Under the pieces are notes generated by a model that made no database searches, had not been told where the DNA came from, and saw only the letters and a program-made list of their open reading frames with translations. The position numbers and the translations under genes are program-made. A DNA stretch of 45,477 nt from a bacterium (GTDB lineage Bacteria > Aerophobota > Aerophobia > Aerophobales > AE-B3A), in the NCBI GenBank assembly GCA_046760365.1, contig JBHIEA010000001.1:1-45477 (forward strand), read 5' to 3'. Shown here in pieces: positions 18,404 to 35,872 of this stretch (its first letter is position 1; every line of letters starts with the position of its first letter).

Positions 18404-18431
18404 TTGACAAAATACAGGTTGTGTATAGAAT
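18404..18431 (+). promoter_or_regulatory. sigma-70-like promoter of the glycine riboswitch transcript
   Basis: TTGACA at 18404-18409, a 16-nt spacer, then TAGAAT at 18426-18431. Confidence 0.45.
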
Positions 18432-18467
18432 TCAGAATGGTTGAAAATATGGTATGGCTAGAGGGCG

Positions 18468-18651
18468 ATTAAGGGAGAGACCAGAAACATCTGGCGCCGA
18501 AGGGGCAATCCTTAACTCCAAACTCTCAGGCAAAAGGACCTTAATTAGCTAGCTCTCTGGAGAAGCTTTCCTTAAATCTGATCAAGGAAAGAACCGAAGG
18601 GGCAGTCTTGCCTTGGTAGGCAAGACGAATCTCTCAGGTAAAAGGACAGAG
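18468..18651 (+). promoter_or_regulatory. tandem glycine riboswitch (two aptamers)
   Basis: Aptamer 1 has P1 ATTAAGG/CCTTAAT, GGAGAG, CTGGCGCCGAAGGGGCAA and CTCTCAGGCAAAAGGAC. Aptamer 2 has CTCTGGAGAA, ACCGAAGGGGCA and CTCTCAGGTAAAAGGACAGAG. These are the canonical conserved cores of the gcvT glycine riboswitch class. Confidence 0.92.
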
Positions 18652-18689
18652 GGCACGACACCCATCAAGTTGTCGTGTCCTCTTTTTTA
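18648..18689 (+). terminator. intrinsic terminator (expression platform of the glycine riboswitch)
   Basis: AGAGGGCACGACA (18648-18660) pairs with TGTCGTGTCCTCT (18671-18683), giving 13 bp with one G-U, then TTTTTT. Its 5' arm overlaps the 3' strand of aptamer-2 P1 (CAGAG). Confidence 0.85.
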
Positions 18690-18717
18690 TTGAGGATGAA
18701 GATACAGAGATTACTAG

Positions 18718-18930
18718 AGGGATAGGAATTTCAATAATTTCTCTGAATTGTTATCAAGTAAACCTCAGCAGACCAGATATCAGAAAAAAGAGGGGAGGCC
18801 TGCTCTCTCATGCCCTGAGCGGACGGGCAGAGTGCCGAAAGGCAGCGAGAGTCGGCTTTGCCGATCGAGCCGTCGAGGGGGGCATTCCGAAGGAATCGGC
18901 GAAGCCCTATTTCCCCCTCGAGTATCTTGT
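18718..18930 (+). repeat. unclassified ~200-nt intergenic repeat / candidate structured RNA, copy 1 (213 nt)
   Basis: Hand-aligned to 41621-41814 with about a dozen substitutions over ~186 alignable positions plus indels of 22, 4 and 1 nt. It contains hairpins AATAATT/AATTGTT, TGCC-GAAA-GGCA, TCGGC-TTT-GCCGA and ATTCC-GAA-GGAAT, and an 8-bp helix CGAGGGGG/CCCCCTCG. Confidence 0.85.
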
Positions 18931-18945
18931 GAGGGAGGGGCACCA

Positions 18946-20139
18946 ATGCAAATTGCAAGAAGAATGGGAAGACTAGGGACTGAAACTGCATTTGAAGTTT
19001 TGGCACAGGTAAATAGGCTCAAAGCAGAAGGCCAAGATATTATAAGTTTTGCTTTAGGAGAGCCTGATTTTGATACCCCTACGAATATTAAAGATGCAGC
19101 AATGAAGGCAATTACTGATGGTTATACTCATTACAGTCCCTCGGCTGGAATCCTTCCTTTGAGAGAGTCGATTGCGCACTACATTTCTGATACCAGAGGC
19201 ATGGGGGTGGAACCTGATGAGGTAGTGGTTACTCCCGGGGCAAAACCAATAATTTTTGATAGCATCCTTTCCTGTGTTAATGAAGGGGATGAGGTGATAT
19301 ATCCCAACCCGGGATTTCCCATCTATGAATCGGTTATAGACTTCTTAGGGGCAAAACCAGTTCCTCTTCCCCTTTTGGAAGAGAAAAACTTCAGTTTTGA
19401 TCCAGAGGATCTCAGGAGGAGAATAAGCCCCAGAACGAGGATGATCATTCTCAATTCTCCCCACAATCCCACCGGTGGCATCTTAAGTCAGGATGATCTG
19501 GAAACTATTGCTGAAATAGCTATGAAAAATGATCTGTGGATTTTGTCTGACGAGGTCTACTCTAAGATTATCTATGACGGGAAGTTTCAAAGTATCATTT
19601 CTATCCCGGGGATGAAGGAGAGAACGATTCTGGTGGATGGTTTTTCTAAGACTTATGCTATGACTGGCTGGCGATTGGGATTTGGCATAATGAAGAAGGA
19701 GTTGGCCGTAGATATTGCCAGAATAGAGACCAACGTTGATTCCTGTACGGCAACTTTTACCCAGTATGCGGGAATAGAGGCCCTGAAAGGTCCGCAGGAT
19801 GAATCTTCAGCCATGATAGCTGAATTTCAGAGAAGGCGAGATCTCATCTATGAGGAATTGAATGACATCGAGGGAATAAAGTGTCTGAAGCCGAAAGGAG
19901 CTTTTTACATATACCCAAATGTAACCGAGGCTTGCCGGAATCTAGATTTGGGTGACTCAAAGGAGCTTCAACAATATCTATTACACCGCGCAAAGGTAGC
20001 GGTATTGGCAAGAAGCTGTTTTGGCAGGCGAAACGAAGGGGAGAAAGAGGAATATATCAGATTGTCTTATGCGACTTCCAGAAAAAACATAATCGAAGGA
20101 GTAAAAAAAATTAAAAAAGCTATTGAATCTAAGTCTTAG
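18946..20139 (+). CDS. class-I PLP aminotransferase (aspartate/alanine aminotransferase type)
   Basis: 398 aa starting MQIARRMGRLGTETAFEV. Motifs are GEPDFDTP, NSPHNPTG and the PLP-lysine motif SKTYAMTGWRLGF. The SD GAGGGAGGGG lies 6 nt upstream. The longer ORF-track start (18748) runs through the non-coding repeat. Confidence 0.9.
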   Translation: MQIARRMGRLGTETAFEVLAQVNRLKAEGQDIISFALGEPDFDTPTNIKDAAMKAITDGYTHYSPSAGILPLRESIAHYISDTRGMGVEPDEVVVTPGAKPIIFDSILSCVNEGDEVIYPNPGFPIYESVIDFLGAKPVPLPLLEEKNFSFDPEDLRRRISPRTRMIILNSPHNPTGGILSQDDLETIAEIAMKNDLWILSDEVYSKIIYDGKFQSIISIPGMKERTILVDGFSKTYAMTGWRLGFGIMKKELAVDIARIETNVDSCTATFTQYAGIEALKGPQDESSAMIAEFQRRRDLIYEELNDIEGIKCLKPKGAFYIYPNVTEACRNLDLGDSKELQQYLLHRAKVAVLARSCFGRRNEGEKEEYIRLSYATSRKNIIEGVKKIKKAIESKS

Positions 20140-20174
20140 GCAAAATGTCAGATTTAGCTCACAGGAATTGATTC

Positions 20175-23100
20175 ATGGAAAAGAGACAGTTTTCATCAAA
20201 GGAAGCCTCCTCAGGAAAACGCGATCCGGCTTACTCAAATTTTCTCTTGGAGGAAAATCTCTCTGAGGTAGACCCTGATACGGACCTTATCATCGGTTTT
20301 GAGGAAGACCGGCAAGCCAAAAAGCTTATCCTCATTCCTTCCGAAAGCATCTGCCCCAAAGCTGTCCGCCAGGCCCTGGGCTCGGTCTTCACTAGCCTCT
20401 ATGCGGAAGGATATCCCCCCTTAAGAATGACCAGGGACGAAGAATCTCTGTTATTAGATTTCAAGGATCAGCTTGCCCACTGCCGACGCTATGCCGATAG
20501 ACGATTTTACAAAGGAGGTGAGTACGCCAATTTTGTTGAAGCTTTAGCCCAGAGGCGGGCCGCCCAATGCTTTGCTACCGATAACAGTCCCAATGCTCCC
20601 CTAAAGGTTGGGGCTGATCAAATATTTGTCAATGTACAACCTCTCTCCGGAGCAGCGGCTAATAACTCTGTGTATGAGGCTTTTGTTGAACCTGGTGATA
20701 CGGTTATGGGTATGGCTTTAGCCCATGGAGGCCATCTAACCCACGGCAGTGAGTTCAATCGATCCGGCAAGCGCTATCATATCGTTTCCTATGGAGTTAG
20801 TGAAGAAACCGGCAGATTAGATTATGAGGTGATCAAAAGGCTGGCCATCGAGCATAAACCAAAAATGATCATTGCCGGCTATACCTCCTATCCCTGGGCC
20901 CCTGACTGGCAGAAGTTCAGAGAGATTGCTGACAGTGTGGGAGCTATACTCTTCGCTGATATTGCTCATCCCGCGGGACTGGTGATTGCGGGGCAATATC
21001 CAAGTCCAGTTGGTTATGCTGACGTCATTACCTTAACCACTCATAAAACGCTCTGTGGTCCCCGTGGTGCAGTTATTTTGACTACCGATGAGGAAAAGGC
21101 CCAAAGAATAGACAATGCCGTCTTTCCTGGCGAGCAGGGGGGGCCTCACGTTAATAAGTTTGCCGCTATGGCGGTAGCTTTTAAGATTGCCCAAACAAAA
21201 AAGTTCAAAAAACTTCAAGAAAAAATTGTAGAAAATGCGCAGGTTCTGGTCTCTTCTCTTAAGAGGCGAGGCTTAGAGATAGCCTATGGAGGGACAAATA
21301 CTCACCTTTTGGTAATCGATCTAAGGGCTGTTAAAGCCAGGACGGGCTTTCCTCTAAAGGGTGAAATAGCTGCTCGCATCCTGGATCTTTGCGGCCTGGT
21401 GGTTAATAAGAACACTATTCCTGGTGATGAGACAGCCGCCGAGGCCAGCGGTGTCCGTCTGGGAACCCCCTGGATTACTCAGCGAGGACTAGGGAAAAAG
21501 GAGATAAAGAAGTTAGCCGAACTTATTCACCGGGTTATCACCAGGATTCAGCCTTTTAGCTACACAGGGCTGAAAGGGGATCTACCCCGAGGAAAGATAG
21601 ATTTAGAGACTCTTGAAGAAGTAAGACAGGAAGTAGCGGAACTGACCCAGACAGCCAAGGCTGAGACTTCCACCCATGAGCGAGCGGCTAAGCTTGGGTA
21701 TCCCCATTATGATGTTCCCGCAAAGCCTTCGGTAAAAAAGACCAGCTTACTTACGCAGCACCGGAAGCTGGGGGGGAAAATCGTCGAAAATAACGGTTGG
21801 GAAATGCCCATTCATTATGAAAATTTTACCGAAGAACTTAAAGCCGCCCGGATGACAGCGGTCATTTTCGACCTCGGCGACATGGGACTACTGAAGGTAA
21901 GTGGAGAAAGGGCCAAGCCCTTTCTCCAAGGGGTGTCTACCAAAAATCTAGCCGAGCTTAAGCCGGGAGAGTTCCTGCGTTCTTTTCTTCTGGACTCACA
22001 AGCTCAACTCATCGACGAGGTTTCTATTCTCTATTTAAATTGTGATAATAGTGGTAGAGACCATTATTTGGTAGTGACCAATCCGTCCCAGACTGAAAAG
22101 GTAAAGTCGTGGCTGCGGGGACTTTCCGACGGATATATTACTTTCGACCCCGATGATATATTTGCCAAAATTGAAGGACCAGCAGTAGTGGAGGACTTAG
22201 GAGAGACTGTTGAAAAAGGGTCACGCAGGATGGGAATAGCTTTGTACGGACCAAATTCTTCCAAAATCCTCAGGAAAATAGACTCTTCTTTGGGGAATCT
22301 TAAGAAATTTAATTTCCGGCAAGCGAAGATCGGACAAATCCAAGCCATCATCTCCCGAACCGGCTATACCAAGGACTCCTTAGGATTTGAATTCTATATC
22401 CACCCAAACGACGCCATCAAGCTCTGGAATCTACTTTTAAGACAAGGAAGGGAGTTTGGCATTAGGCCAGCCGGGCTTTTGACCAGAAATCATTTGCGCT
22501 CAGAAGCAGGTCCGCCTTCCCATGAAGATCCTAAATTCAAAACTCCCGGGCTTTCTCTATATAAGGCTCACCCCTCTCATTTTCATCTTTCAAAGCCTTA
22601 TTTTATTGGACAAAAGACTATTGATAAAGCGCTAGGATCCTTGGTAGCGAAAGAGGAGTTTCAATATAAGGAAGAGAAAGGGAAGCTAAGACAAAGTCCT
22701 CTGTATGATGAGCATTTGAAACTAGGGGCTAAGTTTGTTAAGTTTACCGGTTGGAAGATGCCTGTTTGTTACACCAGTATTAATGAGGAGCACCGGGCAG
22801 TAAGAGAGACAGCCGGGCTTTTTGATGTAGCCCATATGGGAGTAATAGAAATTGCGGGTGAGCACGCTGCCAGTTTCCTGGATACCGTTTCTACTAACTA
22901 CGTGCGATGGTTAAAAGATGGGCAATCTCAGTACGCCTACCTTCTCGATCCTGATGGCAATATCCTGGATGACGTTATGATCTATCGCCGCCATTGCCAT
23001 CGATATATGATGGTGGTCAATGCCGTTAATGAGCCCAAGATCTGGGCCTGGCTACGCGCTGTCAACTCCAAAAAATTTCTCATAGATCGAGACCATCCCA

Positions 23101-23921
23101 ATAAAGAGATTGAAGGAAAAGCGGTTCTCAGGAATCTAAAAGAGGCCTCATCCGGAAGGGATCAAAAAGTTGATCTGGCTCTCCAGGGCCCTAGTTCACT
23201 CTCCATATTACAGAAATTGGCAAAAGAGAAAGAGCTGAAGGGAAAATTAGCCAGAATTAGGAAAAATGAATTCCTGGAGGTTGAGCTTTCCGGAATTGAG
23301 ATGATAATTTCCCGGAGCGGTTATACCGGCGAAGATGTTGGCTATGAGCTTTATCTACATCCTGAAAACGCTACTCTCATTTGGAACCTGCTTTTAAGAG
23401 AGGGCAAAGATTTTGGCATTAAACCCTCTGGTCTGGGGGCCCGAGATTCAACCAGGATTGAAGCTGGTCTACCCTTATACGGACATGAGCTGGCTGGCAA
23501 ATACGGTATTACTCCTACTGAGGCTGGTTATGGGGCATTTGTTAAACTTCACAAACCCTACTTTATCGGGAAAAAGCGCCTTTTGAAAAGGCAACAGAGG
23601 AAAATGGAGATTATTCGTTTCAAGATGAAATCTAAAGGTATCAGAATGGTAAAATCAGAAGATCCCATCGTTGATGAAAAAGGCCAATACATTGGGAGAG
23701 TTACCAGTTGTGCTTTGGTGGGTGGGATTCAGCTTGGACTGGCTTATGTGGATAAAGATTTCGCAGAGGAAGGAAGAAAAATCGGAATATTTATTCTTCC
23801 GCGAGGAGGAAAATTTCTTCCAGAGGTCCCTAAAGATGAACTGATCAGAGGAGATAGGGTACTTCTTCACGAAGAAGCTATAGTCTTAAGCCGCTTCCCT
23901 GAAAAAAACAGCAGGATCTAG
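20175..23921 (+). CDS. three-domain fusion: divergent serine hydroxymethyltransferase-like domain + truncated GcvT-like domain + complete GcvT (aminomethyltransferase) domain
   Basis: Residues ~40-500 are SHMT-fold (SES..YAEGYP, GGHLTHG, TTHKTLCGPRG). Residues ~523-815 are GcvT-like (GWEMPIHY, FDLGDMGLLKVSG). Residues ~841-1248 are a canonical GcvT (GWKMPVCY, FDVAHMGVIEIAG, C-terminal barrel). Internal repeats pair up as KPYFIGQKT/KPYFIGKKR and LWNLLLRQGREFGIRPAGL/IWNLLLREGKDFGIKPSGL. Confidence 0.88.
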   Translation: MEKRQFSSKEASSGKRDPAYSNFLLEENLSEVDPDTDLIIGFEEDRQAKKLILIPSESICPKAVRQALGSVFTSLYAEGYPPLRMTRDEESLLLDFKDQLAHCRRYADRRFYKGGEYANFVEALAQRRAAQCFATDNSPNAPLKVGADQIFVNVQPLSGAAANNSVYEAFVEPGDTVMGMALAHGGHLTHGSEFNRSGKRYHIVSYGVSEETGRLDYEVIKRLAIEHKPKMIIAGYTSYPWAPDWQKFREIADSVGAILFADIAHPAGLVIAGQYPSPVGYADVITLTTHKTLCGPRGAVILTTDEEKAQRIDNAVFPGEQGGPHVNKFAAMAVAFKIAQTKKFKKLQEKIVENAQVLVSSLKRRGLEIAYGGTNTHLLVIDLRAVKARTGFPLKGEIAARILDLCGLVVNKNTIPGDETAAEASGVRLGTPWITQRGLGKKEIKKLAELIHRVITRIQPFSYTGLKGDLPRGKIDLETLEEVRQEVAELTQTAKAETSTHERAAKLGYPHYDVPAKPSVKKTSLLTQHRKLGGKIVENNGWEMPIHYENFTEELKAARMTAVIFDLGDMGLLKVSGERAKPFLQGVSTKNLAELKPGEFLRSFLLDSQAQLIDEVSILYLNCDNSGRDHYLVVTNPSQTEKVKSWLRGLSDGYITFDPDDIFAKIEGPAVVEDLGETVEKGSRRMGIALYGPNSSKILRKIDSSLGNLKKFNFRQAKIGQIQAIISRTGYTKDSLGFEFYIHPNDAIKLWNLLLRQGREFGIRPAGLLTRNHLRSEAGPPSHEDPKFKTPGLSLYKAHPSHFHLSKPYFIGQKTIDKALGSLVAKEEFQYKEEKGKLRQSPLYDEHLKLGAKFVKFTGWKMPVCYTSINEEHRAVRETAGLFDVAHMGVIEIAGEHAASFLDTVSTNYVRWLKDGQSQYAYLLDPDGNILDDVMIYRRHCHRYMMVVNAVNEPKIWAWLRAVNSKKFLIDRDHPNKEIEGKAVLRNLKEASSGRDQKVDLALQGPSSLSILQKLAKEKELKGKLARIRKNEFLEVELSGIEMIISRSGYTGEDVGYELYLHPENATLIWNLLLREGKDFGIKPSGLGARDSTRIEAGLPLYGHELAGKYGITPTEAGYGAFVKLHKPYFIGKKRLLKRQQRKMEIIRFKMKSKGIRMVKSEDPIVDEKGQYIGRVTSCALVGGIQLGLAYVDKDFAEEGRKIGIFILPRGGKFLPEVPKDELIRGDRVLLHEEAIVLSRFPEKNSRI

Positions 23922-24058
23922 AATTAAGTAAAGAGTTTAAAGAAGGCATGGATAAGAGGGAGGAGTTGACAGCGGGAATGAGAGAGTAAGGTGTCAGTTT
24001 AGGATTCGGGAAAAAGAGGTAAGGTATCTCTCAAGAACAGCAAAGAGGAGATTACTAA

Positions 24059-26119
24059 ATGCCAATTATGGATTCTAAGACAGGAAAGATAAGAAGGGAA
24101 TATAAAATGGAAGAATTGACAGAGAAAGTGAGGCAAATGAGAGCTTATAATATGGTTAGTCTTACTGCGGCTGGCTCAGGACACACCGGGGGGACTCTGT
24201 CAATTATGGATATTGCCGCCGCCTTATATCTCAAAAAAATAAGACATGACCCCAAAAATCCTCATTGGGAAGATCGGGACAGAGTTTTCTGGTCTACCGG
24301 TCACAAAGCTCCGGCTCTTTATGTAGCTTTGGGTGAAGCAGGTTATTTTCCAGTAAAAGAAGTGGTGAAGTTAAGGAAATTATGGTCTGGTTTTGAAGGT
24401 CATCCCCATAGATTGAGACTACCCGGAGTTGAGCTTTCCGCAGGATCTTTAGGGCAGGGTCTGGGGGTGGCCGTAGGTTGTGCACTTAATGCTAAATTAG
24501 AAGGGGAAAACTACCAAGTGTATTCCATTAATGGAGATGGAGAACTTGATGAGGGTTCTATCTGGGAGGCCGTAATGTGTGCTGCTCATTATAAGTTAGA
24601 CAACCTGGTATGTATTGTTGACAGAAATGGCTTGCAAATTGATGGCCCCACCGAGGAAGTCATGAGATTGGAATCTCTGGCTGATAAATGGAGAGCCTTT
24701 GGATGGAATACTATTTCAATAGACGGTCATAATATGGAAGAGATCCTGGATGCCCTTGATGAAGCGGAGAAGGTGAAAGGAAAACCATCAGTAATAATCG
24801 CTAAAACCACCAAAGGAAAAGGCGTTTCCTATGCTGAGAATGTAGTAGGTTATCACGGTATCGCTCCTAAAGATGGAAGATCAGGCAATGAGTCATTGGA
24901 CCAGGCCTTAGAGGACATAGGAGATGCGTCTTTTACTAAAGATAAAGTAGATAGACTACTAAAAATTGCTGATGATTACCAAAACCAAGTGAATAAGAAG
25001 GTAGAAGCTTCCATGCCTAGCTTTAGCAGAAATTACTGGTGGAATTCAGCTAATCGAATGAAAGTTGAGATGGATGCTACCCGAAATGGCTTTGGTAGGG
25101 CTATAGAAAAATTAGGCCGAGATAAAAGAGTGGTGGCATTGGGGGCTGATATTACCAGTTCCATAAGGATGGATAGATTCTACGCCCAACATCCCGAGAG
25201 GAAAAAGAGGTTTTTCAGCATGGGGATAGCTGAGGCTAATATGGCTCTGGTTGCCTCTGGTTTAGCCAAAGAGGGGAAAATACCATTTATTGGGTCCTAC
25301 GGAGTTTTCGCAACCGGTAGAAATTGGGATCAGCTAAGAACTACCGTATGTTATAACAACTTCAATGTAAAAGTTGCCGATGCTCATGGTGGTATTTCAG
25401 TGGGGCCAGATGGAGCTACCCATCAAGCATTGGAGGAAATTACCAACATCTGCTATTTACCCAATATGCATATGGCCATCCCTTGTGATTCAATTGAGAC
25501 CGAAAAAGCGACAGAATTTATTGCTTTCATTGAGGGACCTGCGGTGGTTAGGTACGCCAGGGAAGCAACTCCCGTGGTGACCACCAAGGATACTCCCTAT
25601 GAGTTTGGTTTAGCCAATATAATAAGATACCGAGGTGAGAAAAAAAAATTCATCGAGGCATTTGAGGTAAAGCTCTCCCCCGGTTATGAATCAGAAAATG
25701 AAGATTTAACGGTAATTGCCTGTGGACCTATGGTGCCGGAAGCAATGAGGGCGGCTTACATTTTAAAAGAAGAATACGGAATTGAGGCAAGAATACTAAA
25801 CGTCCATACAGTTAAGCCAATCGATAAGAAGGCAGTTGTAAAAGCAGCGGAAGAAACAGGTATCATCATAACTGCGGAGGAACACCAGGTTGGCGGTTTT
25901 GGAAATATTGTTGCGGGAGTGATAGCACAGGGTAAGAGATATGATGCACCCCTGTTAATGGATATGGTGGGGGTGGAGGATAAGTTTGGTGAATCTGGAC
26001 AACCCTGGGAGTTGATGAAGACATTCGGATTAACGGCTGAGCACATTGCAAAAAAAGCCAAAAATTTATACGATCAAAAAAATAGAAATAGCCTGCATGT
26101 TGATAGAAAAGGAGTTTAA
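24059..26119 (+). CDS. tkt: transketolase, single polypeptide made of the N-terminal and C-terminal halves of the split type
   Basis: N-terminal half has GSGHTGGTLS and the ThDP motif NGDGELDEGSIWEA. A ~50-aa linker follows. The C-terminal half has the Pyr domain (FFSMGIAEANM) and a C-terminal domain. AGGAG lies 8 nt upstream. Confidence 0.88.
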   Translation: MPIMDSKTGKIRREYKMEELTEKVRQMRAYNMVSLTAAGSGHTGGTLSIMDIAAALYLKKIRHDPKNPHWEDRDRVFWSTGHKAPALYVALGEAGYFPVKEVVKLRKLWSGFEGHPHRLRLPGVELSAGSLGQGLGVAVGCALNAKLEGENYQVYSINGDGELDEGSIWEAVMCAAHYKLDNLVCIVDRNGLQIDGPTEEVMRLESLADKWRAFGWNTISIDGHNMEEILDALDEAEKVKGKPSVIIAKTTKGKGVSYAENVVGYHGIAPKDGRSGNESLDQALEDIGDASFTKDKVDRLLKIADDYQNQVNKKVEASMPSFSRNYWWNSANRMKVEMDATRNGFGRAIEKLGRDKRVVALGADITSSIRMDRFYAQHPERKKRFFSMGIAEANMALVASGLAKEGKIPFIGSYGVFATGRNWDQLRTTVCYNNFNVKVADAHGGISVGPDGATHQALEEITNICYLPNMHMAIPCDSIETEKATEFIAFIEGPAVVRYAREATPVVTTKDTPYEFGLANIIRYRGEKKKFIEAFEVKLSPGYESENEDLTVIACGPMVPEAMRAAYILKEEYGIEARILNVHTVKPIDKKAVVKAAEETGIIITAEEHQVGGFGNIVAGVIAQGKRYDAPLLMDMVGVEDKFGESGQPWELMKTFGLTAEHIAKKAKNLYDQKNRNSLHVDRKGV

Positions 26120-26199
26120 GCTTTTGCTGGTCTAGACAGATTTTCTCAACAAAATTAGGTTAAAAAATCCTCTTGAAAGCATCTCTTAAGGAGAATAGA

Positions 26200-26586
26200 T
26201 TGTATTCAAAAGATTTAAAGTATACCGAAACTCACGAGTGGGTAAAAGTCGATAGGGGCTTTGTTACCGTAGGCATTACCGATTTCGCCACCAAACAGCT
26301 AACAGACCTTGTCTATGTAGAACTTCCCATGATAGGGGAAAAAGTTACCCGAGGCTCCTCCTTGGGAGTTATAGAGTCGGTCAAAGCTGTCTCTGATTTG
26401 TACTCCCCCGTAAGTGGAACCATAGTCGAGGTAAATGAGAAATTATCTAAAGAACCAGAAATAGTAACTCAAGATCCTTACGGTGAAGGGTGGATGATCA
26501 AGATAAAGATAGAGGATCCCGCTGAACTAGATACTTTGATGGATTCAGAGGAATATGAGGACCTGGTAAGGAAGGAAAAAAAGTGA
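26200..26586 (+). CDS. gcvH: glycine cleavage system H protein
   Basis: Lipoyl-lysine motif ESVKAVSDLYSPVSG and N-terminus DLKYTETHEWV. TTG 26200 is preferred because AAGGAGA lies 5-6 nt upstream; the ORF track opens at TTG 26173. Confidence 0.9.
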   Translation: MYSKDLKYTETHEWVKVDRGFVTVGITDFATKQLTDLVYVELPMIGEKVTRGSSLGVIESVKAVSDLYSPVSGTIVEVNEKLSKEPEIVTQDPYGEGWMIKIKIEDPAELDTLMDSEEYEDLVRKEKK

Positions 26587-27929
26587 TTCCCTATATTCCC
26601 AATACCGAAGAAGACCAAAAGGAGATGCTAAAAGAGATAGGAGCTGGGTCCATAGAAGACCTGTTCGATAGTATCCCTCAGAATTTACTACTAAAAAACG
26701 ACCTCAGTCTTCCCTCATCGATGTCAGAGATGGAGCTAGTTAATGAGCTTAAGGGTCTATCTCGAAAAAACACCAATTTAGATGAATACGTCTCTTTTCT
26801 GGGAGCAGGAAGTTATGATCATTTTATCCCTTCCCTGGTTGATCATCTCTCCGGCAGGTCCGAATTTTATACCTCTTACACTCCCTATCAGGCAGAGGCC
26901 AGTCAGGGAATCCTGCAAGCCACTTATGAATATCAAAGCCTTATCTGCGAGCTTTTTCAAATGGATGTCTGTAATGCCTCGCTTTATGAGGGGGCAACCG
27001 CCTTGGCTGAGGCAGTCATCCTGGCTCATAGGGTTAATCATCGCCAGAAAGTGTTAGTAGCTAAAACTCTTCACCCAGAGTATCGTCAGGTTCTCACCAC
27101 CTATATAAAGAAAACCTTGGGTCTGTCTATAATAGAGATAGACTACGAGGATGGGGTGACGGATCTTACTAAATTAGAAGAAACGATTGATAAAGATACA
27201 AGCTGCGTGGTCATCCAGAATCCTAACTTTTTTGGTTGTCTGGAGAAAGTTAACGGAATAGAAAAAATTACCCACCGAGCTGGTTCTTTATACATTGTCT
27301 CGGTGGATCCCATATCCTTAGGGATGCTTATTCCTCCGGCAGAGTACCATGCCGATATCGCCGTAGGCGAAGGACAAGCCTTGGGAGGTAAACTTAATTT
27401 CGGAGGACCATATTTAGGAATTTTTACGTCTAAGACCGAATTCTTGAGAAAAATGCCGGGGAGAATCGTGGGAGAGACCATCGATAAAAAGGGAAGAAGA
27501 GGATTCGTCTTAACCTTACAAACTAGAGAACAGCATATACGGAGAGAACGGGCAACCTCAAATATCTGTACCAACCAGGCTCTGAATGCTTTGAGAGCTA
27601 CCATATACCTCTCCACCCTGGGAGAGGAAGGGTTGGCTCAGGTAGCTAATCTGTGTCTGCAAAAATCACATTACGCCGCTAAGAGAATTTACCAGATTCC
27701 TGGATTTGAGCCTACCTTTGCCAGTCCCTTTTTTAAAGAATTCGCGGTAAGATGTCCCCTCTCGCCTCATAAGATAAATAAGCTGCTCTGGGACAATAAG
27801 ATCCTGGGGGGATTTGACCTGGGAAGATTTTCCCCAGAACTGGAGAATTCCTTATTATTCAGCGTAACTGAAAAAAGAACCCGGGAGGAGATCGATAAAC
27901 TCACCCTGCTTTTGGAAGATATGGTATGA
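26583..27929 (+). CDS. gcvPA: glycine dehydrogenase (decarboxylating) subunit 1
   Basis: 448 aa with the typical N-terminus IPYIPNTEEDQKEMLKEIG. The GTG start overlaps the gcvH stop by 4 nt. Confidence 0.92.
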   Translation: MIPYIPNTEEDQKEMLKEIGAGSIEDLFDSIPQNLLLKNDLSLPSSMSEMELVNELKGLSRKNTNLDEYVSFLGAGSYDHFIPSLVDHLSGRSEFYTSYTPYQAEASQGILQATYEYQSLICELFQMDVCNASLYEGATALAEAVILAHRVNHRQKVLVAKTLHPEYRQVLTTYIKKTLGLSIIEIDYEDGVTDLTKLEETIDKDTSCVVIQNPNFFGCLEKVNGIEKITHRAGSLYIVSVDPISLGMLIPPAEYHADIAVGEGQALGGKLNFGGPYLGIFTSKTEFLRKMPGRIVGETIDKKGRRGFVLTLQTREQHIRRERATSNICTNQALNALRATIYLSTLGEEGLAQVANLCLQKSHYAAKRIYQIPGFEPTFASPFFKEFAVRCPLSPHKINKLLWDNKILGGFDLGRFSPELENSLLFSVTEKRTREEIDKLTLLLEDMV

Positions 27930-29386
27930 GAGAGCCTCTAATATTTGAGAAAACTAGGCCAGAAAGAAGCGGATGTTTGCTTCCTGAGTGTGACGTCGAG
28001 AAGGAGGATCTGGAAAAGCTGGTCCCTAAAAAATATCTCCGCCAAGGTAGTTTAGGCTTGCCCCAGGTAAGTGAGCCCGATTTGGTGCGTCATTTCGTGC
28101 GGCTCTCTCAGCAAAATGTGGGGGTAGATACCAATTTTTATCCCCTGGGGTCCTGCACTATGAAGTACAATCCTAAGGTAAACGAGGATATGGCCCAGCT
28201 ACCGGGCTTTACCAGAGTCCACCCCTATCAGCCTGAGGCTGGGGTACAGGGAATCCTGCAGCTACTTTATGAAATGGAAAAGCTTCTATGTGAGATATCC
28301 GGGATGGATAGGGTGTCACTACAGCCAGCCGCTGGAGCTCATGGGGAGCTTACTAGTTTAATGATGATAAAGGCTTACTATGAGGATAAAAAAGAAAAAA
28401 GAGATATCGTCCTTATACCCGACTCTGCTCACGGGACCAATCCTGCTAGTTCTCGCGTCTGTGGATTTCGAACGGTAGAGGTAAAATCGAATAAAGAGGG
28501 AGGAATAGATTTACCTGACCTAAAGGGGAAGACGAGCAGAAAAGTAGCTGCTTTAATGGTTACTATTCCCAACACCCTGGGTCTATTTGAGAGAAATATC
28601 CTCAAGGCTGCCCAAATTGTCCATGATAGGGGTGGCTTTCTTTACCTAGACGGAGCCAATCTCAATGCCCTCTTAGGAATAGTTAAACCGTCTGAAATGG
28701 GAATAGATATAATGCACTTTAATCTCCACAAGACTTTTTCCACCCCTCATGGAGGAGGAGGCCCCGGTTCGGGACCGGTGGGTGCAAAAGGAAAGCTCAC
28801 CCACTATTTACCGACTCCTATAGTAGAAAAAGATACTCAAGGCTATTATCTTGAATATGCTAGACCCAAATCTGTAGGAAGGGTTCGATCTTTTTATGGG
28901 AATATCGAGGTCATCATAAAAGCATACTGTTATCTTAGATCTTTGGGGAAAGAAGGATTAAAGAAGATAAGCCATAATGCCGTCTTGAATGCCAATTACC
29001 TCATGAAACGACTAAAAAAGTTCTTCTATCTTCCTTATGATGGGCCCTGTATGCATGAGTTTGTCCTCTCGGCAGAAGACGGAAAGTTGAACGGTGTAAA
29101 AGCCTTGGACATTGCTAAACGCCTTTTGGACTTCGGCTTTCATCCTCCTACCATATATTTTCCCTTAATAGTGAAAGAGGCTTTGATGATTGAGCCTACC
29201 GAGACCGAGTCCAAGGAAACCCTGGATGAGTTTGTATCTTGTATGATTCAAATTAGACGCGAGATGGAAGAGGATCCCTCTTTGATTAAGCAGGCTCCTC
29301 ATAACTTGTCCATTGGGCGGCTGGATGAGGTAAAGGCAGCTAAAGAGCTGAAGTTAAGATGGAAACAAAAAGAGAGTGGCGATTGA
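27926..29386 (+). CDS. gcvPB: glycine dehydrogenase (decarboxylating) subunit 2
   Basis: 486 aa with the PLP-lysine region HFNLHKTFSTPHGGGGPG. The ATGA overlap with gcvPA indicates translational coupling. Confidence 0.92.
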   Translation: MREPLIFEKTRPERSGCLLPECDVEKEDLEKLVPKKYLRQGSLGLPQVSEPDLVRHFVRLSQQNVGVDTNFYPLGSCTMKYNPKVNEDMAQLPGFTRVHPYQPEAGVQGILQLLYEMEKLLCEISGMDRVSLQPAAGAHGELTSLMMIKAYYEDKKEKRDIVLIPDSAHGTNPASSRVCGFRTVEVKSNKEGGIDLPDLKGKTSRKVAALMVTIPNTLGLFERNILKAAQIVHDRGGFLYLDGANLNALLGIVKPSEMGIDIMHFNLHKTFSTPHGGGGPGSGPVGAKGKLTHYLPTPIVEKDTQGYYLEYARPKSVGRVRSFYGNIEVIIKAYCYLRSLGKEGLKKISHNAVLNANYLMKRLKKFFYLPYDGPCMHEFVLSAEDGKLNGVKALDIAKRLLDFGFHPPTIYFPLIVKEALMIEPTETESKETLDEFVSCMIQIRREMEEDPSLIKQAPHNLSIGRLDEVKAAKELKLRWKQKESGD

Positions 29387-30090
29387 TTGATTCTGGTTAT
29401 CGAGATGCTTATACCAATATGGCTATAGACGAGGCCGTATTCCTCATGAGAGAGAAACTGGGCCTTCCTTCTACCCTTCGATTCTATGGCTGGAAACCAG
29501 CGGCTATCTCTATCGGTTACTTTCAGAGAATAGAAGATCCTTCCTTAAAAGAATATAAGAGACAAAGACTAACCATTGTCAGGCGCTTCACCGGAGGAGG
29601 CGCGATATTGCATAGAGGTGAGATCACCTATTCTTTAGCTTGCTCTGCCCATGAATTTGCTGCCTTTAGAGAGATTATAAAAACACAAAAGCTCGTTCAT
29701 GAGGCTATAATCCTCGGTCTACAAAATCTGGGGATGAAGGCCGAGTTAAAAAGAAAGAAGATTAAAAGACCCAATCCCTATTTTTGTTTTGTCTATCCCT
29801 CAAAATACGATGTGGTTGAAGCCGGAAGAAAGATTGTGGGAAGCGCCCAAAGGAGAAAAAATAGAGCCTTTTTTCAACACGGATCGATTTTAATAGACAA
29901 TAAGATTACCCCTAAAGGTATCAAAGAGAAAAAAGATAGGGAGAAAATTATAGACAGCCTCATCTGGGGATTTGAGAAAAAACTTGGGATAAGACTATTG
30001 CCTGGCCAGTTAACCAAAGAAGAGGTGAAACTATCCCATAAATTAAAGAAGGCTAGATACAGCACCCGAAGTTGGAATTATCGAAGATAG
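29359..30090 (+). CDS. lipoate-protein ligase / octanoyltransferase family protein (catalytic domain only)
   Basis: 243 aa with RRFTGGGAILH and the KIVGSAQRR lysine motif of the LplA/LipM/LipB fold. It overlaps the gcvPB 3' end by 28 nt. Confidence 0.8.
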   Translation: METKREWRLIDSGYRDAYTNMAIDEAVFLMREKLGLPSTLRFYGWKPAAISIGYFQRIEDPSLKEYKRQRLTIVRRFTGGGAILHRGEITYSLACSAHEFAAFREIIKTQKLVHEAIILGLQNLGMKAELKRKKIKRPNPYFCFVYPSKYDVVEAGRKIVGSAQRRKNRAFFQHGSILIDNKITPKGIKEKKDREKIIDSLIWGFEKKLGIRLLPGQLTKEEVKLSHKLKKARYSTRSWNYRR

Positions 30091-30766: not shown

Positions 30767-32812
30767 ATGTACAGGTTGAGCACAGACGTGGGGGGAACTT
30801 TTACCGATGGGGTCCTGCTCGATGAGAGTAATGGAATGATCAAGATAAGCAAGGTCTCTTCCACCCCTAAGAATCCTGCCCTTGGCACTATTGAATGCAT
30901 GGAGAGATTCGAGATTCCTCTGGGCGAAGTTTCTTTCTTGGTTCATGGAACTACTGTGGTGATCAATGCCTTGCTTGAGGGTAAGGGTGCAAAGACAGGC
31001 TTGATCACTACAAAGGGGTTCAGGGATGTGCTGGAAATTGGTCGAAGCAACCGGACCCAGATGTACAACGCCCTTTATAAGAAGCCCACCCCCCTTGTCC
31101 CAAGATACCTCAGACTCGAGATCAAAGAAAGGATGGGAGGGAACGGGGAGGCGTTGGCTCCTCTGGCCATCGATGATCTTGCCAAGATCATCGAGCATTT
31201 GCGCAAGGAAAACGTCCAATCAATAGCAGTCTGTCTCGTCAACGCCTATGCCAATCCCAAACATGAGCGGGAGATAGGCGGGCTGTTGGACAAGCAGTAT
31301 CCTGAGGCAACCGTATCCCTCTCACACAATATTACCAGACGGTACTACGAATATGAACGGACTAGCACCACTGTCCAGAATGCGTATGTGATGCCAGTAG
31401 TGCGAACGTACCTGGGAAGCCTGGAAGAGGAGCTTGCAAAACGCCGCTTTCAAAGCATCTTGCAAATCATGCAGTCCAATGGGGGTATCATGACGTCCGC
31501 CGTTGCCAGGGACATGCCTATCTCAATGGTCGAATCAGGCCCCGTGGCTGGCGCGATCGGAGGAGCCCAGCTGGCCAGCATGATCGGATATAGCAACGTT
31601 ATCACCTACGACATGGGAGGTACCACCGCTAAGACCTCCATTATCAGGGAAGGATTGCCGGAGACCACAGATCAATATCTGGTCGAGGAGCGTCCCATCC
31701 TGCTCCCTGTAGTTGATATGCGCGAGATTGGGGCTGGTGGGGGGAGTATCGCCTGGATTGATGAGGCGGGAGCCCTACATGTGGGGCCACGAAGTGCTGG
31801 AGCTGAGCCAGGTCCAGCATGCTATATCCAAGGTGGCACAGAACCTACAGTGACGGATGCGGATCTACAGTTGGGTATCTTGGACCCAGACTATTTCCTG
31901 GGGGGTGAGAAGCATATCTCGCCCGAGCTTAGCCATAAAGCCATAGAAAAGGTCGCTCGTTATTTTGACATCAGCGTTGATGAGGCAGCATTGGGCATCG
32001 TCAAGATTGTCAACAACAACATGTCGGGGTTATTGCAGTCCGTGACGGTTAAACGCGGGTATGATCCGAGAGAATTTGCCATGGTCGCATTTGGCGGGGC
32101 AGGACCCACTCATGCTGCCGCCATCGCCAGGGAGCTGAATATCCCAACAGTTATTGTTCCACCGTCTCCTGGAGTATTCTCTGCCTGGGGGATGTTGATG
32201 GCAGACCTGAGGCATGACTTTAGCCAGACTTACATCACTTCCGTCGATCAGGCCGATATGGAATCAATAAATGGTATATTCAGAGAGTTGGAAGTGCGGG
32301 TAAAGGATCTCTTCGAGCGTGAGAATATCTCCGATGAGAAGATAGTAGTGAGCCACGAAATGGACCTCAGGTATTATGGGCAGGAGCACACATTGAGTGT
32401 TCCGGCTCCTTCTAAACCTACCGATGCTGATAAGGCCATACTAGAGGACAGGTTTGATAACCTTCATCTTAAGGTGTACGGCCATAACGCTCCCCAGGAG
32501 CCTAAGGAGGTTGTCTCGCTCAAGGTCACAGGTATTGGTAAGGTAAGAAAACCCGTTTTGCAGAGTATTGAGTGCGGAAGTGAGACGCCTGCGTCAGAGT
32601 CCAGGGTGGGAGTAAGAAAAGTCTACCTGGGAGGCAGCAGGCATCAGGAATTCAGCATCTATCAGCGCAATAAACTTCGGGCAGGAAACATCATACCAGG
32701 CCCGGCCATTATTGAAGAGCCAACTTCGACTACTGTGGTCGAAAAGGGCCAGATTTGCTCGGTAGACCAATATGGCAGTCTCATCATTGCTCTGAATGAG
32801 GAGGGAGAATGA
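30767..32812 (+). CDS. hyuA: hydantoinase/oxoprolinase family protein, A subunit
   Basis: 681 aa with the N-terminus RLSTDVGGTFTD typical of HyuA/OplA ATP-dependent lactam hydrolases. Confidence 0.9.
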   Translation: MYRLSTDVGGTFTDGVLLDESNGMIKISKVSSTPKNPALGTIECMERFEIPLGEVSFLVHGTTVVINALLEGKGAKTGLITTKGFRDVLEIGRSNRTQMYNALYKKPTPLVPRYLRLEIKERMGGNGEALAPLAIDDLAKIIEHLRKENVQSIAVCLVNAYANPKHEREIGGLLDKQYPEATVSLSHNITRRYYEYERTSTTVQNAYVMPVVRTYLGSLEEELAKRRFQSILQIMQSNGGIMTSAVARDMPISMVESGPVAGAIGGAQLASMIGYSNVITYDMGGTTAKTSIIREGLPETTDQYLVEERPILLPVVDMREIGAGGGSIAWIDEAGALHVGPRSAGAEPGPACYIQGGTEPTVTDADLQLGILDPDYFLGGEKHISPELSHKAIEKVARYFDISVDEAALGIVKIVNNNMSGLLQSVTVKRGYDPREFAMVAFGGAGPTHAAAIARELNIPTVIVPPSPGVFSAWGMLMADLRHDFSQTYITSVDQADMESINGIFRELEVRVKDLFERENISDEKIVVSHEMDLRYYGQEHTLSVPAPSKPTDADKAILEDRFDNLHLKVYGHNAPQEPKEVVSLKVTGIGKVRKPVLQSIECGSETPASESRVGVRKVYLGGSRHQEFSIYQRNKLRAGNIIPGPAIIEEPTSTTVVEKGQICSVDQYGSLIIALNEEGE

Positions 32813-34563
32813 AGATAGATCCCATAACTCTAGAGGTTATCCGCAATCGGCTGATCGCGGCGAGCCGTGATATCAGGAGGACTGTAGAAAGGGCAGCCTA
32901 TAGCCCCGTGCTCTATGAGGTGGTTGACTTTAGCTGCGGGATCCTGGACAGTGAGGCGAACCTCGTGGCCGAGACTCCAGGACTACCTATATTTCTTGCA
33001 AATTTGGACTATGCTGTTGAGTCGACGTACAATACACTCGGACGCGATAACTTGAAATCCGGGGACGTCATCCTATGCAACGATCCTTACAACGGAGGGG
33101 GAACACACTGCCCTGATCTGGTTGTTTTATGTCCGACTTTCTATAGGGGCGGGATCCGTGGGTGGGCAGCCTTCCGCGGCCACACCGTCGATATGGGAGG
33201 AATTTACCCAGGAGGATGGTATAGCAACACCACCGAGGTATTCCAGGAAGGATTTCGCCTGCCTCCGGTCAAGATCATGGTGGAAGGTGAGCCAAATGAA
33301 GACGTATTCCGGTTAATCAGGGCCAATGGTCGCGTACCCGATGCTGTGTTAGGTGACATTCGCGCTATGATCGCCGCCACACGAACCGGGAGCAAACGCT
33401 TCTCTGAGATCATCGACGACTATGGCCTTGACGTGACGCTGGGGGCCCTTCAAGAGATTCTGGATCAAGGAGAAAGAATGGCCCGGGCGGCCATCCGCCG
33501 CATTCCCAATGGAACTTATGCTGCAGAGGCCTTTCTCGACGGTGATGGTAACGACGATGCGCCGCTGGACGAAAAGCTGCGGCTGAAAGTCACTATAACC
33601 GTAGAAAATGAGGAAATGACCATCGACTTTACCGGAACCGATCGTCAATGCCGCGGCCCCATGAATGTCCCGGAGCCATCAACTATATCTTCCGCCCGGT
33701 ACGGATTCAAGATTGTGACCACCCCCGATCTACCCAGCAATAAGGGTTTTTTCCGCCCGTTGAAGGTTATCATCCCGGACGGGAGTCTCCTGAAGGCCGA
33801 GTTCCCGGCTGCATGTGCGATGTGGCCGGCACCCACCACTACGATTCCGGATTTGATTCTGAAGGCGCTGTCCCCAGCGATGCCGGATCGAGTGAGGGCG
33901 GGTCACTTCGGCGATTCCATGGCGAATTTCATCTATGGGACAGATCCAAGGACGGGCAAGTACTATGTCTGTGCGGAGGGAGATGCCGGCGGATACGGAG
34001 GAAAGCCCGATGATGATGGAGAGCCAGCCCTCTTCTCAATGGACTTGGGGGACACCTACAACGTGCCGTCCGAAGTCGAGGAGGTGAGATTCCCCTGGCG
34101 CGTGGAACGATTCGAGCTTCGTCAGGACTCTGGGGGGGCTGGAAAGTTTCGCGGTGGTCTAGGAGTCCGTCGAGATTACCGAATTATTGGTCATAAGGCG
34201 GGACTCACAGTGACGACGGACCGGGTTAAATATACGCCGCCATGGGGTCTCTTTGGTGGAAAAGCAGGCAAACCAAGCATTACAGTTGTGTATCGAAACG
34301 ACGGTAGCGAAGAGCGCTGGCGGAAGATCTCCAACCTGCCCCTCGCGCCAAATGACGTGGTGAGCTTTCAGACCGGTGGGGGAGGAGGCTATGGCTCACC
34401 CCTCGAGAGAGACCCGGAGAAAGTTCTCCTTGATGTGATAAATGGATACGTATCCTTGCAGAAGGCCAAGGAGGAATATGGAGTCGTAATTGACGAGGAT
34501 AAAATGAAAATAGACGTTAAAGCTACCAGACAATTGCGAGATAATATGAAGAAAGCAGGCTGA
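32809..34563 (+). CDS. hyuB: hydantoinase/oxoprolinase family protein, B subunit
   Basis: 584 aa with the N-terminus DPITLEVIRNRLIAASRDI typical of HyuB. It has a 4-nt overlap with hyuA. Confidence 0.9.
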   Translation: MKIDPITLEVIRNRLIAASRDIRRTVERAAYSPVLYEVVDFSCGILDSEANLVAETPGLPIFLANLDYAVESTYNTLGRDNLKSGDVILCNDPYNGGGTHCPDLVVLCPTFYRGGIRGWAAFRGHTVDMGGIYPGGWYSNTTEVFQEGFRLPPVKIMVEGEPNEDVFRLIRANGRVPDAVLGDIRAMIAATRTGSKRFSEIIDDYGLDVTLGALQEILDQGERMARAAIRRIPNGTYAAEAFLDGDGNDDAPLDEKLRLKVTITVENEEMTIDFTGTDRQCRGPMNVPEPSTISSARYGFKIVTTPDLPSNKGFFRPLKVIIPDGSLLKAEFPAACAMWPAPTTTIPDLILKALSPAMPDRVRAGHFGDSMANFIYGTDPRTGKYYVCAEGDAGGYGGKPDDDGEPALFSMDLGDTYNVPSEVEEVRFPWRVERFELRQDSGGAGKFRGGLGVRRDYRIIGHKAGLTVTTDRVKYTPPWGLFGGKAGKPSITVVYRNDGSEERWRKISNLPLAPNDVVSFQTGGGGGYGSPLERDPEKVLLDVINGYVSLQKAKEEYGVVIDEDKMKIDVKATRQLRDNMKKAG

Positions 34564-34578
34564 AGGAGGGTGCTTAGC

Positions 34579-35697
34579 TTGCGGAGGAGAAGAGCGCAAG
34601 TCTACCAGGACAGGATCCTAAAGGCTCAAAAGCTAATGGCCAATTTGGATCTTGATTTGATGGTGCTCTTCCCCAGCTCGAACATGCTGTATCTCAGTGG
34701 TTTCTATGATGAGCCTGGCGAGCGCATGCTCCTTCTTCTTGTGCCGCGGGAAGGGAATCCCGTGTTCCTTGCTCCGGAGCTCTATGGGGAGCAAATCAAA
34801 CAAAAATCGCCTTTTCGGGACGTCCGCATCTGGAAGGATTCTCATGATCCAACGGACCTCCTACAGCGAACGGTGGTGGACTTCGGGCCGGCGGATGCCA
34901 GAGTCCTTGTGGATGATGGAATGTGGGCTGTATTTTTTCTCATGCTAAGGGAAGTGTTGCCAAAGGCTAGCTTTTCCTTGGCTTCTTGGATTATGGCCCC
35001 CTTGAGAATGCAGAAAACTTCTCATGAGATTCGTTGCCTGGAAAAAGCCGGCGCCGTGGCCGATGAAGCCTTCGAGGAGGTTATCCGGTCTAGGCTTTGC
35101 GGGATGACCGAGCTCACTCTGGCCACGGCTCTCGAGGAGGCCATGAAGAAAAGGGGAGCAGAGAAGATCGGGTTTGAAACATTGGTAGCCTCAGGCCCCA
35201 ATAGTGCACTCCCTCACCATCGGGCTGGCCAGAGGAGAATCGAGCCGGGGGATGTGATTATCTTGGATTATGGATGCCGAATCGGGGGTTACTGCTCGGA
35301 CATCACACGCACGATCGTCTGCAGGGAAGCCTCGAAGGAAATCCAGGCTATCTACGAGATCGTTGAGAGAGCTCAGGAGAAGGCCGTACGAGCAGTAAAG
35401 GTTGGGGTTAGTGCTGAGGAGGTAGATCGGGCAGCGCGTCAGGAGATAGCTAAGGCCGGCTATGATGAGCGGTTCATCCATCGGACCGGTCACGGTATCG
35501 GTCTTGACGTACATGAGGAACCATACATTACTCAGGGAAATCATCTTGACCTTCAAGAGGGTATGACGTTCTCCGTGGAACCAGGGATCTACCTACCGGG
35601 ACGATTTGGCATCCGCATTGAGGATATTGTGGTGGTGACGCAAACGGGCGTACAACGCATGAATCGTTGCACACATACTTTACAGATCGTCGAGTGA
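34579..35697 (+). CDS. M24-family Xaa-Pro aminopeptidase/dipeptidase (creatinase-like N-terminal domain + pita-bread catalytic domain)
   Basis: Metal-ligand motifs DYGCRIGGYCSDITRT, HRTGHGIGLDVHEEP and FSVEPGIY...IRIED. TTG 34579 is preferred because AAGGAGG lies 9 nt upstream; the ORF track opens at GTG 34570. Confidence 0.88.
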   Translation: MRRRRAQVYQDRILKAQKLMANLDLDLMVLFPSSNMLYLSGFYDEPGERMLLLLVPREGNPVFLAPELYGEQIKQKSPFRDVRIWKDSHDPTDLLQRTVVDFGPADARVLVDDGMWAVFFLMLREVLPKASFSLASWIMAPLRMQKTSHEIRCLEKAGAVADEAFEEVIRSRLCGMTELTLATALEEAMKKRGAEKIGFETLVASGPNSALPHHRAGQRRIEPGDVIILDYGCRIGGYCSDITRTIVCREASKEIQAIYEIVERAQEKAVRAVKVGVSAEEVDRAARQEIAKAGYDERFIHRTGHGIGLDVHEEPYITQGNHLDLQEGMTFSVEPGIYLPGRFGIRIEDIVVVTQTGVQRMNRCTHTLQIVE

Positions 35698-35872
35698 GTG
35701 AAATTAGATCTTGGCAAAGGAAGAATCAAAACTTAGGCTGGAAGGAGGTGAAAAGCAGGTAGGTCTGTAATTCGGACGACGAAAGTTTTCCAAAAAAGGA
35801 AAAGCATTAAGTAGCTGAATCTCTTTTTAGAGAGTAGCAGGGAAAGATGAACCAAGTCTTTAGTAGGAGGCG

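Follow-up and report, generated by a model that had tools for sequence, protein, structure and literature searches.

Glycine cleavage operons of the Bacillus subtilis type, gcvT-gcvPA-gcvPB, are controlled by a tandem glycine aptamer with a terminator switch, have a split PA/PB P-protein, and leave the L-protein (dihydrolipoamide dehydrogenase) to be encoded elsewhere. The locus described here, which lies at positions 18946-30090 (+ strand) of a 45,477-nucleotide stretch of Aerophobetes DNA (assembly GCA_046760365.1, contig JBHIEA010000001.1; "the window" below), resembles them in these respects. It differs in that its T-protein is fused to a serine hydroxymethyltransferase (SHMT) and to an extra GcvT-like domain, and in that it includes gcvH, a gene for a lipoyl-attachment enzyme, and genes for an aminotransferase (AT) and a transketolase (TK). 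The riboswitch-gcv part of the operon is already well known; the AT and TK are foreign to the classical gcv operon, a point made in the original prediction for this DNA and upheld here.

The glycine-induced gcs2 operon of Pseudomonas aeruginosa, gcvH2-gcvP2-glyA2-sdaA-gcvT2 (also called GCS-GlyA-SdaA), likewise combines the cleavage system with SHMT and a serine-removing enzyme, in this case a serine dehydratase, and takes glycine to pyruvate (PMC4894688). It uses that dehydratase and is regulated by the protein GcsR, whereas the window uses a riboswitch and would have AT plus TK in the dehydratase's role; no serine dehydratase was found among the window open reading frames (ORFs) scanned. In the serine cycle and in photorespiration, with serine:glyoxylate aminotransferase (SGAT), hydroxypyruvate reductase (HPR) and glycerate kinase, serine is converted to hydroxypyruvate by transamination, as it would be in the route proposed here, and some loci related to ours carry reductase-like and glycerate-kinase-like genes; the serine cycle SGAT, however, is a class V enzyme, whereas the window AT is of class I and its proposed sink is TK instead of a reductase. 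The two-enzyme chemistry proposed here is found in engineered transaminase plus TK cascades, but these are in vitro constructs that make erythrulose; in such a system, coupling a serine transaminase to TK markedly raised the conversion of serine to hydroxypyruvate (PMC8719814).

The seven genes are co-directional and follow a promoter-like site, a tandem glycine riboswitch and a terminator, in the order AT, SHMT-GcvT-like-GcvT fusion, TK, gcvH, gcvPA, gcvPB and a lipoate or octanoate transferase gene (ORF calls, Pfam and NCBIfam). The successive intergenic gaps are 35, 137, 80, -4, -4 and -28 nt, the final three junctions being overlaps. This tight packing behind a glycine ON-type riboswitch had been predicted, and the predicted coordinates were confirmed by ORF calls, Pfam and NCBIfam. 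We tentatively favor, as a reading with somewhat less than an even chance of being right, the view that the most economical explanation of the module is a route from glycine through serine and hydroxypyruvate to TK; this judgement draws on the chemistry of TK and AT, on a linkage of the two genes across phyla, on a conserved AT-fusion-TK core, and on a sister arrangement that bears a reductase gene. The first half of the route, in which glycine cleavage and SHMT produce serine, is well supported. The second half, in which AT and TK are connected by hydroxypyruvate, we infer from gene content and comparison.

The fusion gene (20175-23921, + strand, as are all genes of the operon) encodes a protein of 1248 amino acids (aa) in which Pfam and NCBIfam find an SHMT and two GCV_T stretches. 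Its SHMT domain (20175-21659) scores 433 bits against NF000586 (cut-off 335) and has the pyridoxal phosphate (PLP) motif HKT at residue 290. Its C-terminus (22665-23921) is a full-length GcvT, or T-protein, domain (TIGR00528, 391 versus 236) that matches B. subtilis GcvT (PDB 1YX2) over its whole length with 219 bits and keeps the DD motif. The middle GcvT-like folate-binding domain (21660-22664) matches 1YX2 with 110 bits, residues 4-243 being covered, and is without the C-terminal barrel; in related fusions of 1090-1120 aa only about 100-120 aa of it are left, or none. It is probably a degenerate duplication that acts as a linker, structural or scaffold element. Among Aerophobetes the middle domain, at 57-81% identity, changes faster than its flanks. 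Such fusions are common in Aerophobetes, in Anaerolineae/Chloroflexi and in metagenome-assembled genomes (MAGs) of Actinobacteria, with more than 100 clusters (at 90% identity) that are 53-85% identical to the window protein; databases annotate them merely as GcvT, and whatever the chemistry of the pathway, this widespread protein is uncharacterised.

The H-protein gene gcvH (26200-26586; NF002270, 177 versus 117) encodes the lipoyl-lysine motif ESVKA; its ORF opens at 26173, and the likelier start is the TTG at 26200, which stands behind AAGGAG. The genes gcvPA (26583-27929) and gcvPB (27926-29386) exceed the equivalog cut-offs of NF001696 (652 bits versus 364) and NF003346 (745 bits versus 441), respectively. 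The last gene (29359-30090) encodes a 243 aa LplA/LipM-like lipoate or octanoate transferase that consists of the catalytic domain alone (PF21948, 93 bits versus 27); this LplA/LipB-family protein falls under every NCBIfam equivalog cut-off. Among the window ORFs scanned (two small ORFs lay outside the scan) there is no Pyr_redox-type L-protein, in agreement with what had been said of this DNA before. L-proteins are often encoded away from gcv operons, so that its absence is normal and uninformative.

From these parts, GcvPA/PB, lipoyl-GcvH and the C-terminal GcvT would split one glycine into CO2, NH3 and methylene-tetrahydrofolate (methylene-THF), and the co-encoded LplA/LipM-like enzyme would lipoylate or octanoylate GcvH. 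The fused SHMT domain would join the C1 unit to a second glycine, giving serine, CO2 and NH3 from two glycines overall, and the fusion presumably channels the methylene-THF.

The TK gene (24059-26119, + strand) encodes a 686 aa protein of the human/split-TK type (NF004559, 624 bits versus a cut-off of 488) with all three domains, N-terminal, pyrimidine-binding and C-terminal, and among solved structures it is closest to human TKT and the split TK of Carboxydothermus. Relative to human TKT, residues H37, H77, H110, H258, R318, S345, E366, H416, D424 and R474 are conserved, and Q428 is replaced by H; conservation of the catalytic and phosphate-binding residues indicates a genuine sugar-phosphate transketolase. 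The AT gene (18946-20139, + strand) encodes a 397 aa PLP aminotransferase of class I (subgroup Ib, aspartate aminotransferase (AspAT)/aromatic-AT-like; Pfam Aminotran_1_2, E 6e-68) that is below all 25 equivalog cut-offs among the NCBIfam matches listed, its top score being 355 bits versus 550 for NF041091 (AspAT). Its closest solved relatives are a Pyrococcus aromatic/aspartate AT, cyanobacterial and Thermus AspATs, and prephenate ATs. Over 136 family members there is no change at the PLP lysine, at Arg361 (the alpha-carboxylate arginine) or at the GxKP lysine. The AT was also considered as a prephenate aminotransferase; the family has Gly at the position of Thermus AspAT Lys12, a residue with a putative key role in that activity, and this candidate was set aside.

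In the route that we favor, the AT would fill the place that serine dehydratase has in the GCS-GlyA-SdaA operon and would transaminate serine with 2-oxoglutarate to hydroxypyruvate. TK would take the hydroxypyruvate as an irreversible, CO2-releasing C2 donor and transfer the C2 unit onto an aldose phosphate; this step would pull the unfavourable transamination, and the carbon would enter the pentose-phosphate pool. Acceptance of hydroxypyruvate by transketolase has been known for decades and is exploited in biocatalysis. Hydroxypyruvate is the sole 2-oxoacid among the standard transketolase donors, which makes it the simplest metabolite that an alpha-aminotransferase and a TK can share.

Control of the operon by glycine is indicated by its leader, in which a tandem riboswitch with two aptamers (18458-18653, + strand; RF00504 and RF03166) precedes an intrinsic terminator (18648-18690, + strand) made up of a 13-bp hairpin and a U-run. 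Aptamer 1 is the RF00504 match at 18462-18551 (65.5 bits versus a gathering score of 32). The tandem model RF03166 spans 18458-18653 in a sensitive scan (E 1.4e-14), yet is under its own gathering score of 110; aptamer 2 is above the gathering score in three relatives (L004, L006 and L009; loci used in the comparison are cited by such numbers). The terminator hairpin is present in both the minimum-free-energy and the centroid folds (z = -5.0), and its 5' arm shares sequence with the 3' strand of the P1 stem in aptamer 2. This overlap gives an ON-switch layout, and the predicted fold and layout imply a glycine ON-type switch.

Conservation in relatives was examined by pooling two scans, one anchored on TK in species-representative genomes and one anchored on the fusion in metagenomes, with the window counted among the loci. 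The fusion is directly followed by TK in 17 distinct Aerophobetes-type loci, and in these the AT sits 5' of the fusion wherever the upstream region is present; 3' of TK, where sequence continues, the order is usually gcvH-PA-PB-Lpl. Spacers of about 16-19 nt between fusion and TK and of about 10 nt between TK and gcvH, seen in several relatives, make co-transcription hard to avoid. A glycine riboswitch lies 5' of the AT in all six relatives scanned that include the region (L001, L004, L006, L007, L008 and L009), so that the riboswitch-AT-fusion order, like the fusion-TK order, has the conservation in the neighbourhood that the original prediction had named as a check. In the lineage of L001, L007 and L096 the riboswitch unit is AT-fusion-TK alone, after which unrelated hydroxyproline-type catabolic genes follow, and this minimal unit marks the trio as a conserved core.

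The AT-TK pair extends well beyond these operons. Among the loci compared, 45 have a TK with 53% or more identity to that of the window, and in 18 of these an AT homolog is found near TK; eight of the 18 lie outside the Aerophobetes, and there the AT immediately adjoins TK. The order is AT then TK in Elusimicrobia, TK then AT in Zixibacteria, and transaldolase (Tal), TK, AT in a WOR-3 genome and an unclassified MAG (L040); the two genes also adjoin in an Actinomycetes MAG. This AT is missing from all 32 loci that have outgroup TKs (39-48% identity; Candidate Phyla Radiation, Planctomycetes and Bacillota). In the reverse direction, the L040 AT was used as the query and five homologs 62-65% identical to it (WOR-3-type and Caldiserica) were looked up. 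TK adjoins the AT in all five: four are Tal-TK-AT, with a 4 nt overlap of TK and AT in L135, and the Caldiserica locus has the order RR-AT-RR-TK-adenine deaminase-phosphopentomutase. In tal-tkt pentose-phosphate operons TK likewise follows transaldolase, but in the WOR-3-type loci this class I AT is consistently directly 3' of TK. Recurrence of the adjacency in at least four gene orders points to an old module that the Aerophobetes merged with glycine cleavage genes; judged by these comparisons, the AT-TK pair is an older cross-phylum module, which Aerophobetes would have joined to the gcv genes under a glycine riboswitch. The link between AT and TK that the original prediction drew from the window has therefore held in part, in that the same AT subfamily stands by the same TK clade in five other groups, while TK is canonical, and in some relatives divergent or relocated.

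A number of observations weigh against a route through hydroxypyruvate, and several concern the AT itself. It falls in the aspartate/aromatic aminotransferase group (top PDB matches 1DJU and 1GD9). It has no Aminotran_5 match in Pfam, and is unrelated to the class V serine:glyoxylate and serine:pyruvate enzymes. The characterised serine:glyoxylate and serine:pyruvate aminotransferases belong to class V. The distal-carboxylate-binding lysine (Lys109 in pig numbering) is invariant in the 136 members, and with this dicarboxylate-binding lysine conserved, one substrate pair of the AT is probably Glu/2-oxoglutarate or Asp/oxaloacetate. Specificity of the AT cannot be inferred from sequence, and its action on serine is only predicted. 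Others concern TK, which by its residues is fully canonical. Members of its clade appear to be single-copy per genome, so this TK probably serves the ordinary pentose-phosphate pathway too, and the Km of known TKs for hydroxypyruvate is in the millimolar range. The remainder are matters of gene order. In L009 TK is transcribed divergently to the riboswitch-AT-fusion unit, and it is divergent in L011 and L039/L134 too, so that it does not lie behind a riboswitch in any of these; in L002, L010 and L012 an 80%-identical TK lies elsewhere, between a LarA-like gene and argB. Two sister loci, L088 and L089, have no TK within 9 kb. Outside the Aerophobetes the AT-TK pair keeps company with transaldolase, pentose-phosphate or nucleoside-catabolism genes, and no glycine riboswitch was found at the AT-TK loci L019, L024, L030, L040, L043, L049 and L064.

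Many of these observations suit an explanation in which synteny reflects no shared chemistry, TK being a pentose-phosphate enzyme and the AT a general Asp or aromatic AT. The gcv genes and riboswitch would then have been inserted into an old housekeeping Tal-TK-AT block, and serine would be handled elsewhere, for example by a serine dehydratase. This is the main rival, and we think it somewhat less likely than the route that we favor. In its favor, TK is a single, canonical ortholog: in a neighbor-joining tree the Aerophobetes TKs form a single clade, with the relocated copies nested within it and one match per MAG, so that TK is one ortholog that moved and not a dedicated paralog. The idea of two TK paralogs in Aerophobetes was rejected on the same grounds, the gcv-context and other TKs forming one clade. 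The TK relocations or divergent orientations in several Aerophobetes, and the best matches of the AT to AspAT and aromatic AT, also fit. In other phyla TK stands beside genes for transaldolase, DeoB, purine nucleoside phosphorylase and adenine deaminase; the Zixibacteria pair is found among PolA, CoaE and NlpC genes, and WOR-3 loci have an aspartokinase and a second AT nearby. Adjacency in at least five phyla and at least four gene orders, and in every one of the five AT-centred samples, would however be unusual for unrelated housekeeping genes, and the pair is without accompanying aromatic-pathway genes. In several relatives just 10-20 nt separate TK from the T gene on one side and the H gene on the other, which would put a housekeeping TK under glycine control, and the smallest riboswitch unit, that of the L001 lineage, is just AT-fusion-TK. 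AT/TK adjacency also persists despite inversion in L009, L011 and L039.

Less probable is a reductive sink modelled on the serine cycle or on Thermococcus AGT/GyaR, in which the AT makes hydroxypyruvate from serine or glyoxylate from glycine, a GRHPR-type enzyme reduces it to glycerate or glycolate, glycerate kinase follows, and TK is a bystander. The sister arrangement in L088 and L089 fits such a scheme: GntR-AT-fusion-PA-PB, with an AT 72% identical to that of the window, is followed by genes for a glyoxylate-reductase-like 2-hydroxyacid dehydrogenase, RidA and a class III AT, and TK is missing. The top match of the dehydrogenase is the glyoxylate reductase PRK13243; phosphoglycerate dehydrogenase is an equally good match, and the protein is under every equivalog cut-off, which counts against the scheme. 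Fusions of the Chloroflexi also adjoin genes that could belong to such a sink. In the Chloroflexi/Anaerolineae-type loci L083 (12813-18545) and L107 (13804-16213) a homolog of the LarA-like nickel-pincer 2-hydroxyacid racemase lies 3' of the fusion, which faces a glycerate 2-kinase homolog (the L107 locus stops inside the kinase gene); beyond the kinase, L083 has a GlcF/LutA-like Fe-S protein and a non-orthologous split TK. Other Chloroflexi fusions are solitary. Reduction would also give an inferred redox balance with the NADH from the cleavage system. The window and most Aerophobetes operons are, however, without such a reductase or kinase, yet have TK, and the scheme leaves the cross-phylum AT-TK pairing unexplained; we regard it as improbable. 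If serine is instead routed to TK as we favor, the hydroxypyruvate/glyoxylate-reductase-like enzyme of L088 and L089 may be an alternative sink for the same intermediate.

A dihydroxyacetone synthase-like TK, capturing formaldehyde from methylene-THF or from the T-protein reaction with xylulose 5-phosphate as donor, seems very improbable: the operon does yield C1 units and dihydroxyacetone synthases are by textbook account TK paralogs, but the SHMT-GcvT fusion argues for C1 channelling to serine, the TK retains the phosphate-binding residues of ordinary TKs, and the AT would be left unexplained, as would the pairing of AT and TK seen outside glycine operons.

A broader claim, which we consider less likely than not but with a realistic chance of being right, is that a natural module exists in Aerophobetes, WOR-3, Zixibacteria, Elusimicrobia and Caldiserica in which a class I serine:2-oxoglutarate AT works with a TK that has hydroxypyruvate as its physiological donor. 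If this were true, serine carbon would have an ATP-free, irreversible entry to the pentose-phosphate pool, as would glycine carbon in Aerophobetes by way of the fused glycine cleavage system-SHMT. A natural hydroxypyruvate-dependent transketolase pathway would be new biochemistry, since such chemistry is so far known only from in vitro or engineered cascades, and it would bear on how synthetic routes for C1 and glycine assimilation are designed. Our literature searches turned up no natural pathway based on a serine transaminase plus TK/hydroxypyruvate, nothing on glycine cleavage or transketolase in Aerophobetes, and nothing relevant on a glycine riboswitch with transketolase or on an SHMT-GcvT fusion; in these searches the embedded AT and TK, the triple fusion and the cross-phylum AT-TK module were all without description. 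The conserved AT-TK pair, which one lineage has under a glycine riboswitch together with the fused SHMT/glycine-cleavage enzyme, gives a testable hypothesis, that anaerobic sediment bacteria assimilate glycine and serine carbon in a new way, and even if the chemistry is ordinary, the operon shows a riboswitch regulon capturing a gene of central metabolism.

This TK clade is also found in catabolic clusters of Bacteroidales and Atribacteria (L032, L033, L034, L035, L016 and L017). Its neighbours there encode a xylose-isomerase-like TIM barrel, a transporter of the lactate/glycolate-permease family, DHDPS-family and HpcH-family aldolases, an Ldh_2 dehydrogenase and a cyclophilin-like protein, and the Bacteroidales MAG DATKUO01 has two copies of this TK clade. 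These occurrences suggest that the clade has roles outside the standard pentose-phosphate pathway. The TIM-barrel neighbour was considered as a hydroxypyruvate isomerase and rejected, since it has just a weak IolO-like match.

Two further possibilities for TK in the window were examined and discarded. GC content is even across the operon, at 41-49%, which speaks against TK as a recent foreign insertion. An internal promoter before TK was not detected in a consensus scan of the 137-nt gap, where the sole candidate visible by eye is a TTGACA whose -10 is poor.

A sigma-70-like promoter, TTGACA-16-TAGAAT (18404-18431, + strand; 11/12 matches in a consensus scan), lies 5' of the riboswitch, and L001 has a matching promoter-like site in the same position. 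Between the terminator and the AT start the leader contains an inserted repeat element of 218 nt (18716-18933, no strand assigned), which is outside the pathway; the riboswitch-to-AT distance in relatives is just about 80 nt, versus the window with its 218-nt insertion. A second copy of the repeat is located at 41618-41816, 5' of a solute-binding-protein gene (42011) and within a dubious 109-aa ORF. The copies are about 200-218 nt long and 84-97% identical, the second being shorter by 22 nt, and the element is AT-rich in its 5' part and GC-rich in its 3' part. It was rejected as an RNA element or promoter, being without an Rfam match, a significant fold or a consensus promoter, and no copy was found in the 134 loci fetched. 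At its other end, the unit is set off from the genes that follow by two terminator-like hairpins (30658 and 30702) and by a promoter-like site (30380).

Just 3' of the operon, at 30767-41577, the genes encode hydantoinase/oxoprolinase A and B together with a peptidase of the M24 prolidase/creatinase-like kind and a peptide ABC transporter of the Opp/Dpp type. The same hydantoinase gene is separated from TK in L001 by a set of hydroxyproline-type catabolic genes and a gene for an aldehyde:ferredoxin oxidoreductase. This neighbourhood looks geared to peptides rich in glycine, proline and hydroxyproline.

Finally, the AT-fusion arrangement varies among the relatives. A gene for a GntR/FCD-family regulator replaces the glycine riboswitch before AT-fusion in L011, L039/L134, L088 and L089, and the GntR-type Aerophobetes locus that was scanned for a glycine riboswitch has none; in one Aerophobetes sublineage the same operon has thus exchanged an RNA regulator for a protein one. 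Just 5' of the GntR-AT-fusion cluster, L088 (3025-5820) and L089 (104-2899) encode another fusion of 931 aa, made up of SHMT, GcvT and an aldehyde:ferredoxin-oxidoreductase C-terminal domain, which adjoins a GFO/IDH/MocA oxidoreductase gene. The large fusion is directly followed by gcvH in L108 and L117 and by methionine-synthase-like genes in L099. In L100 (4544-7053) the place of the AT before the fusion is taken by genes for a distant class I/II aminotransferase-fold protein and a zinc alcohol-dehydrogenase-like protein, and the two may be Kbl (2-amino-3-ketobutyrate CoA ligase) and threonine dehydrogenase, a pair that would turn threonine into glycine.

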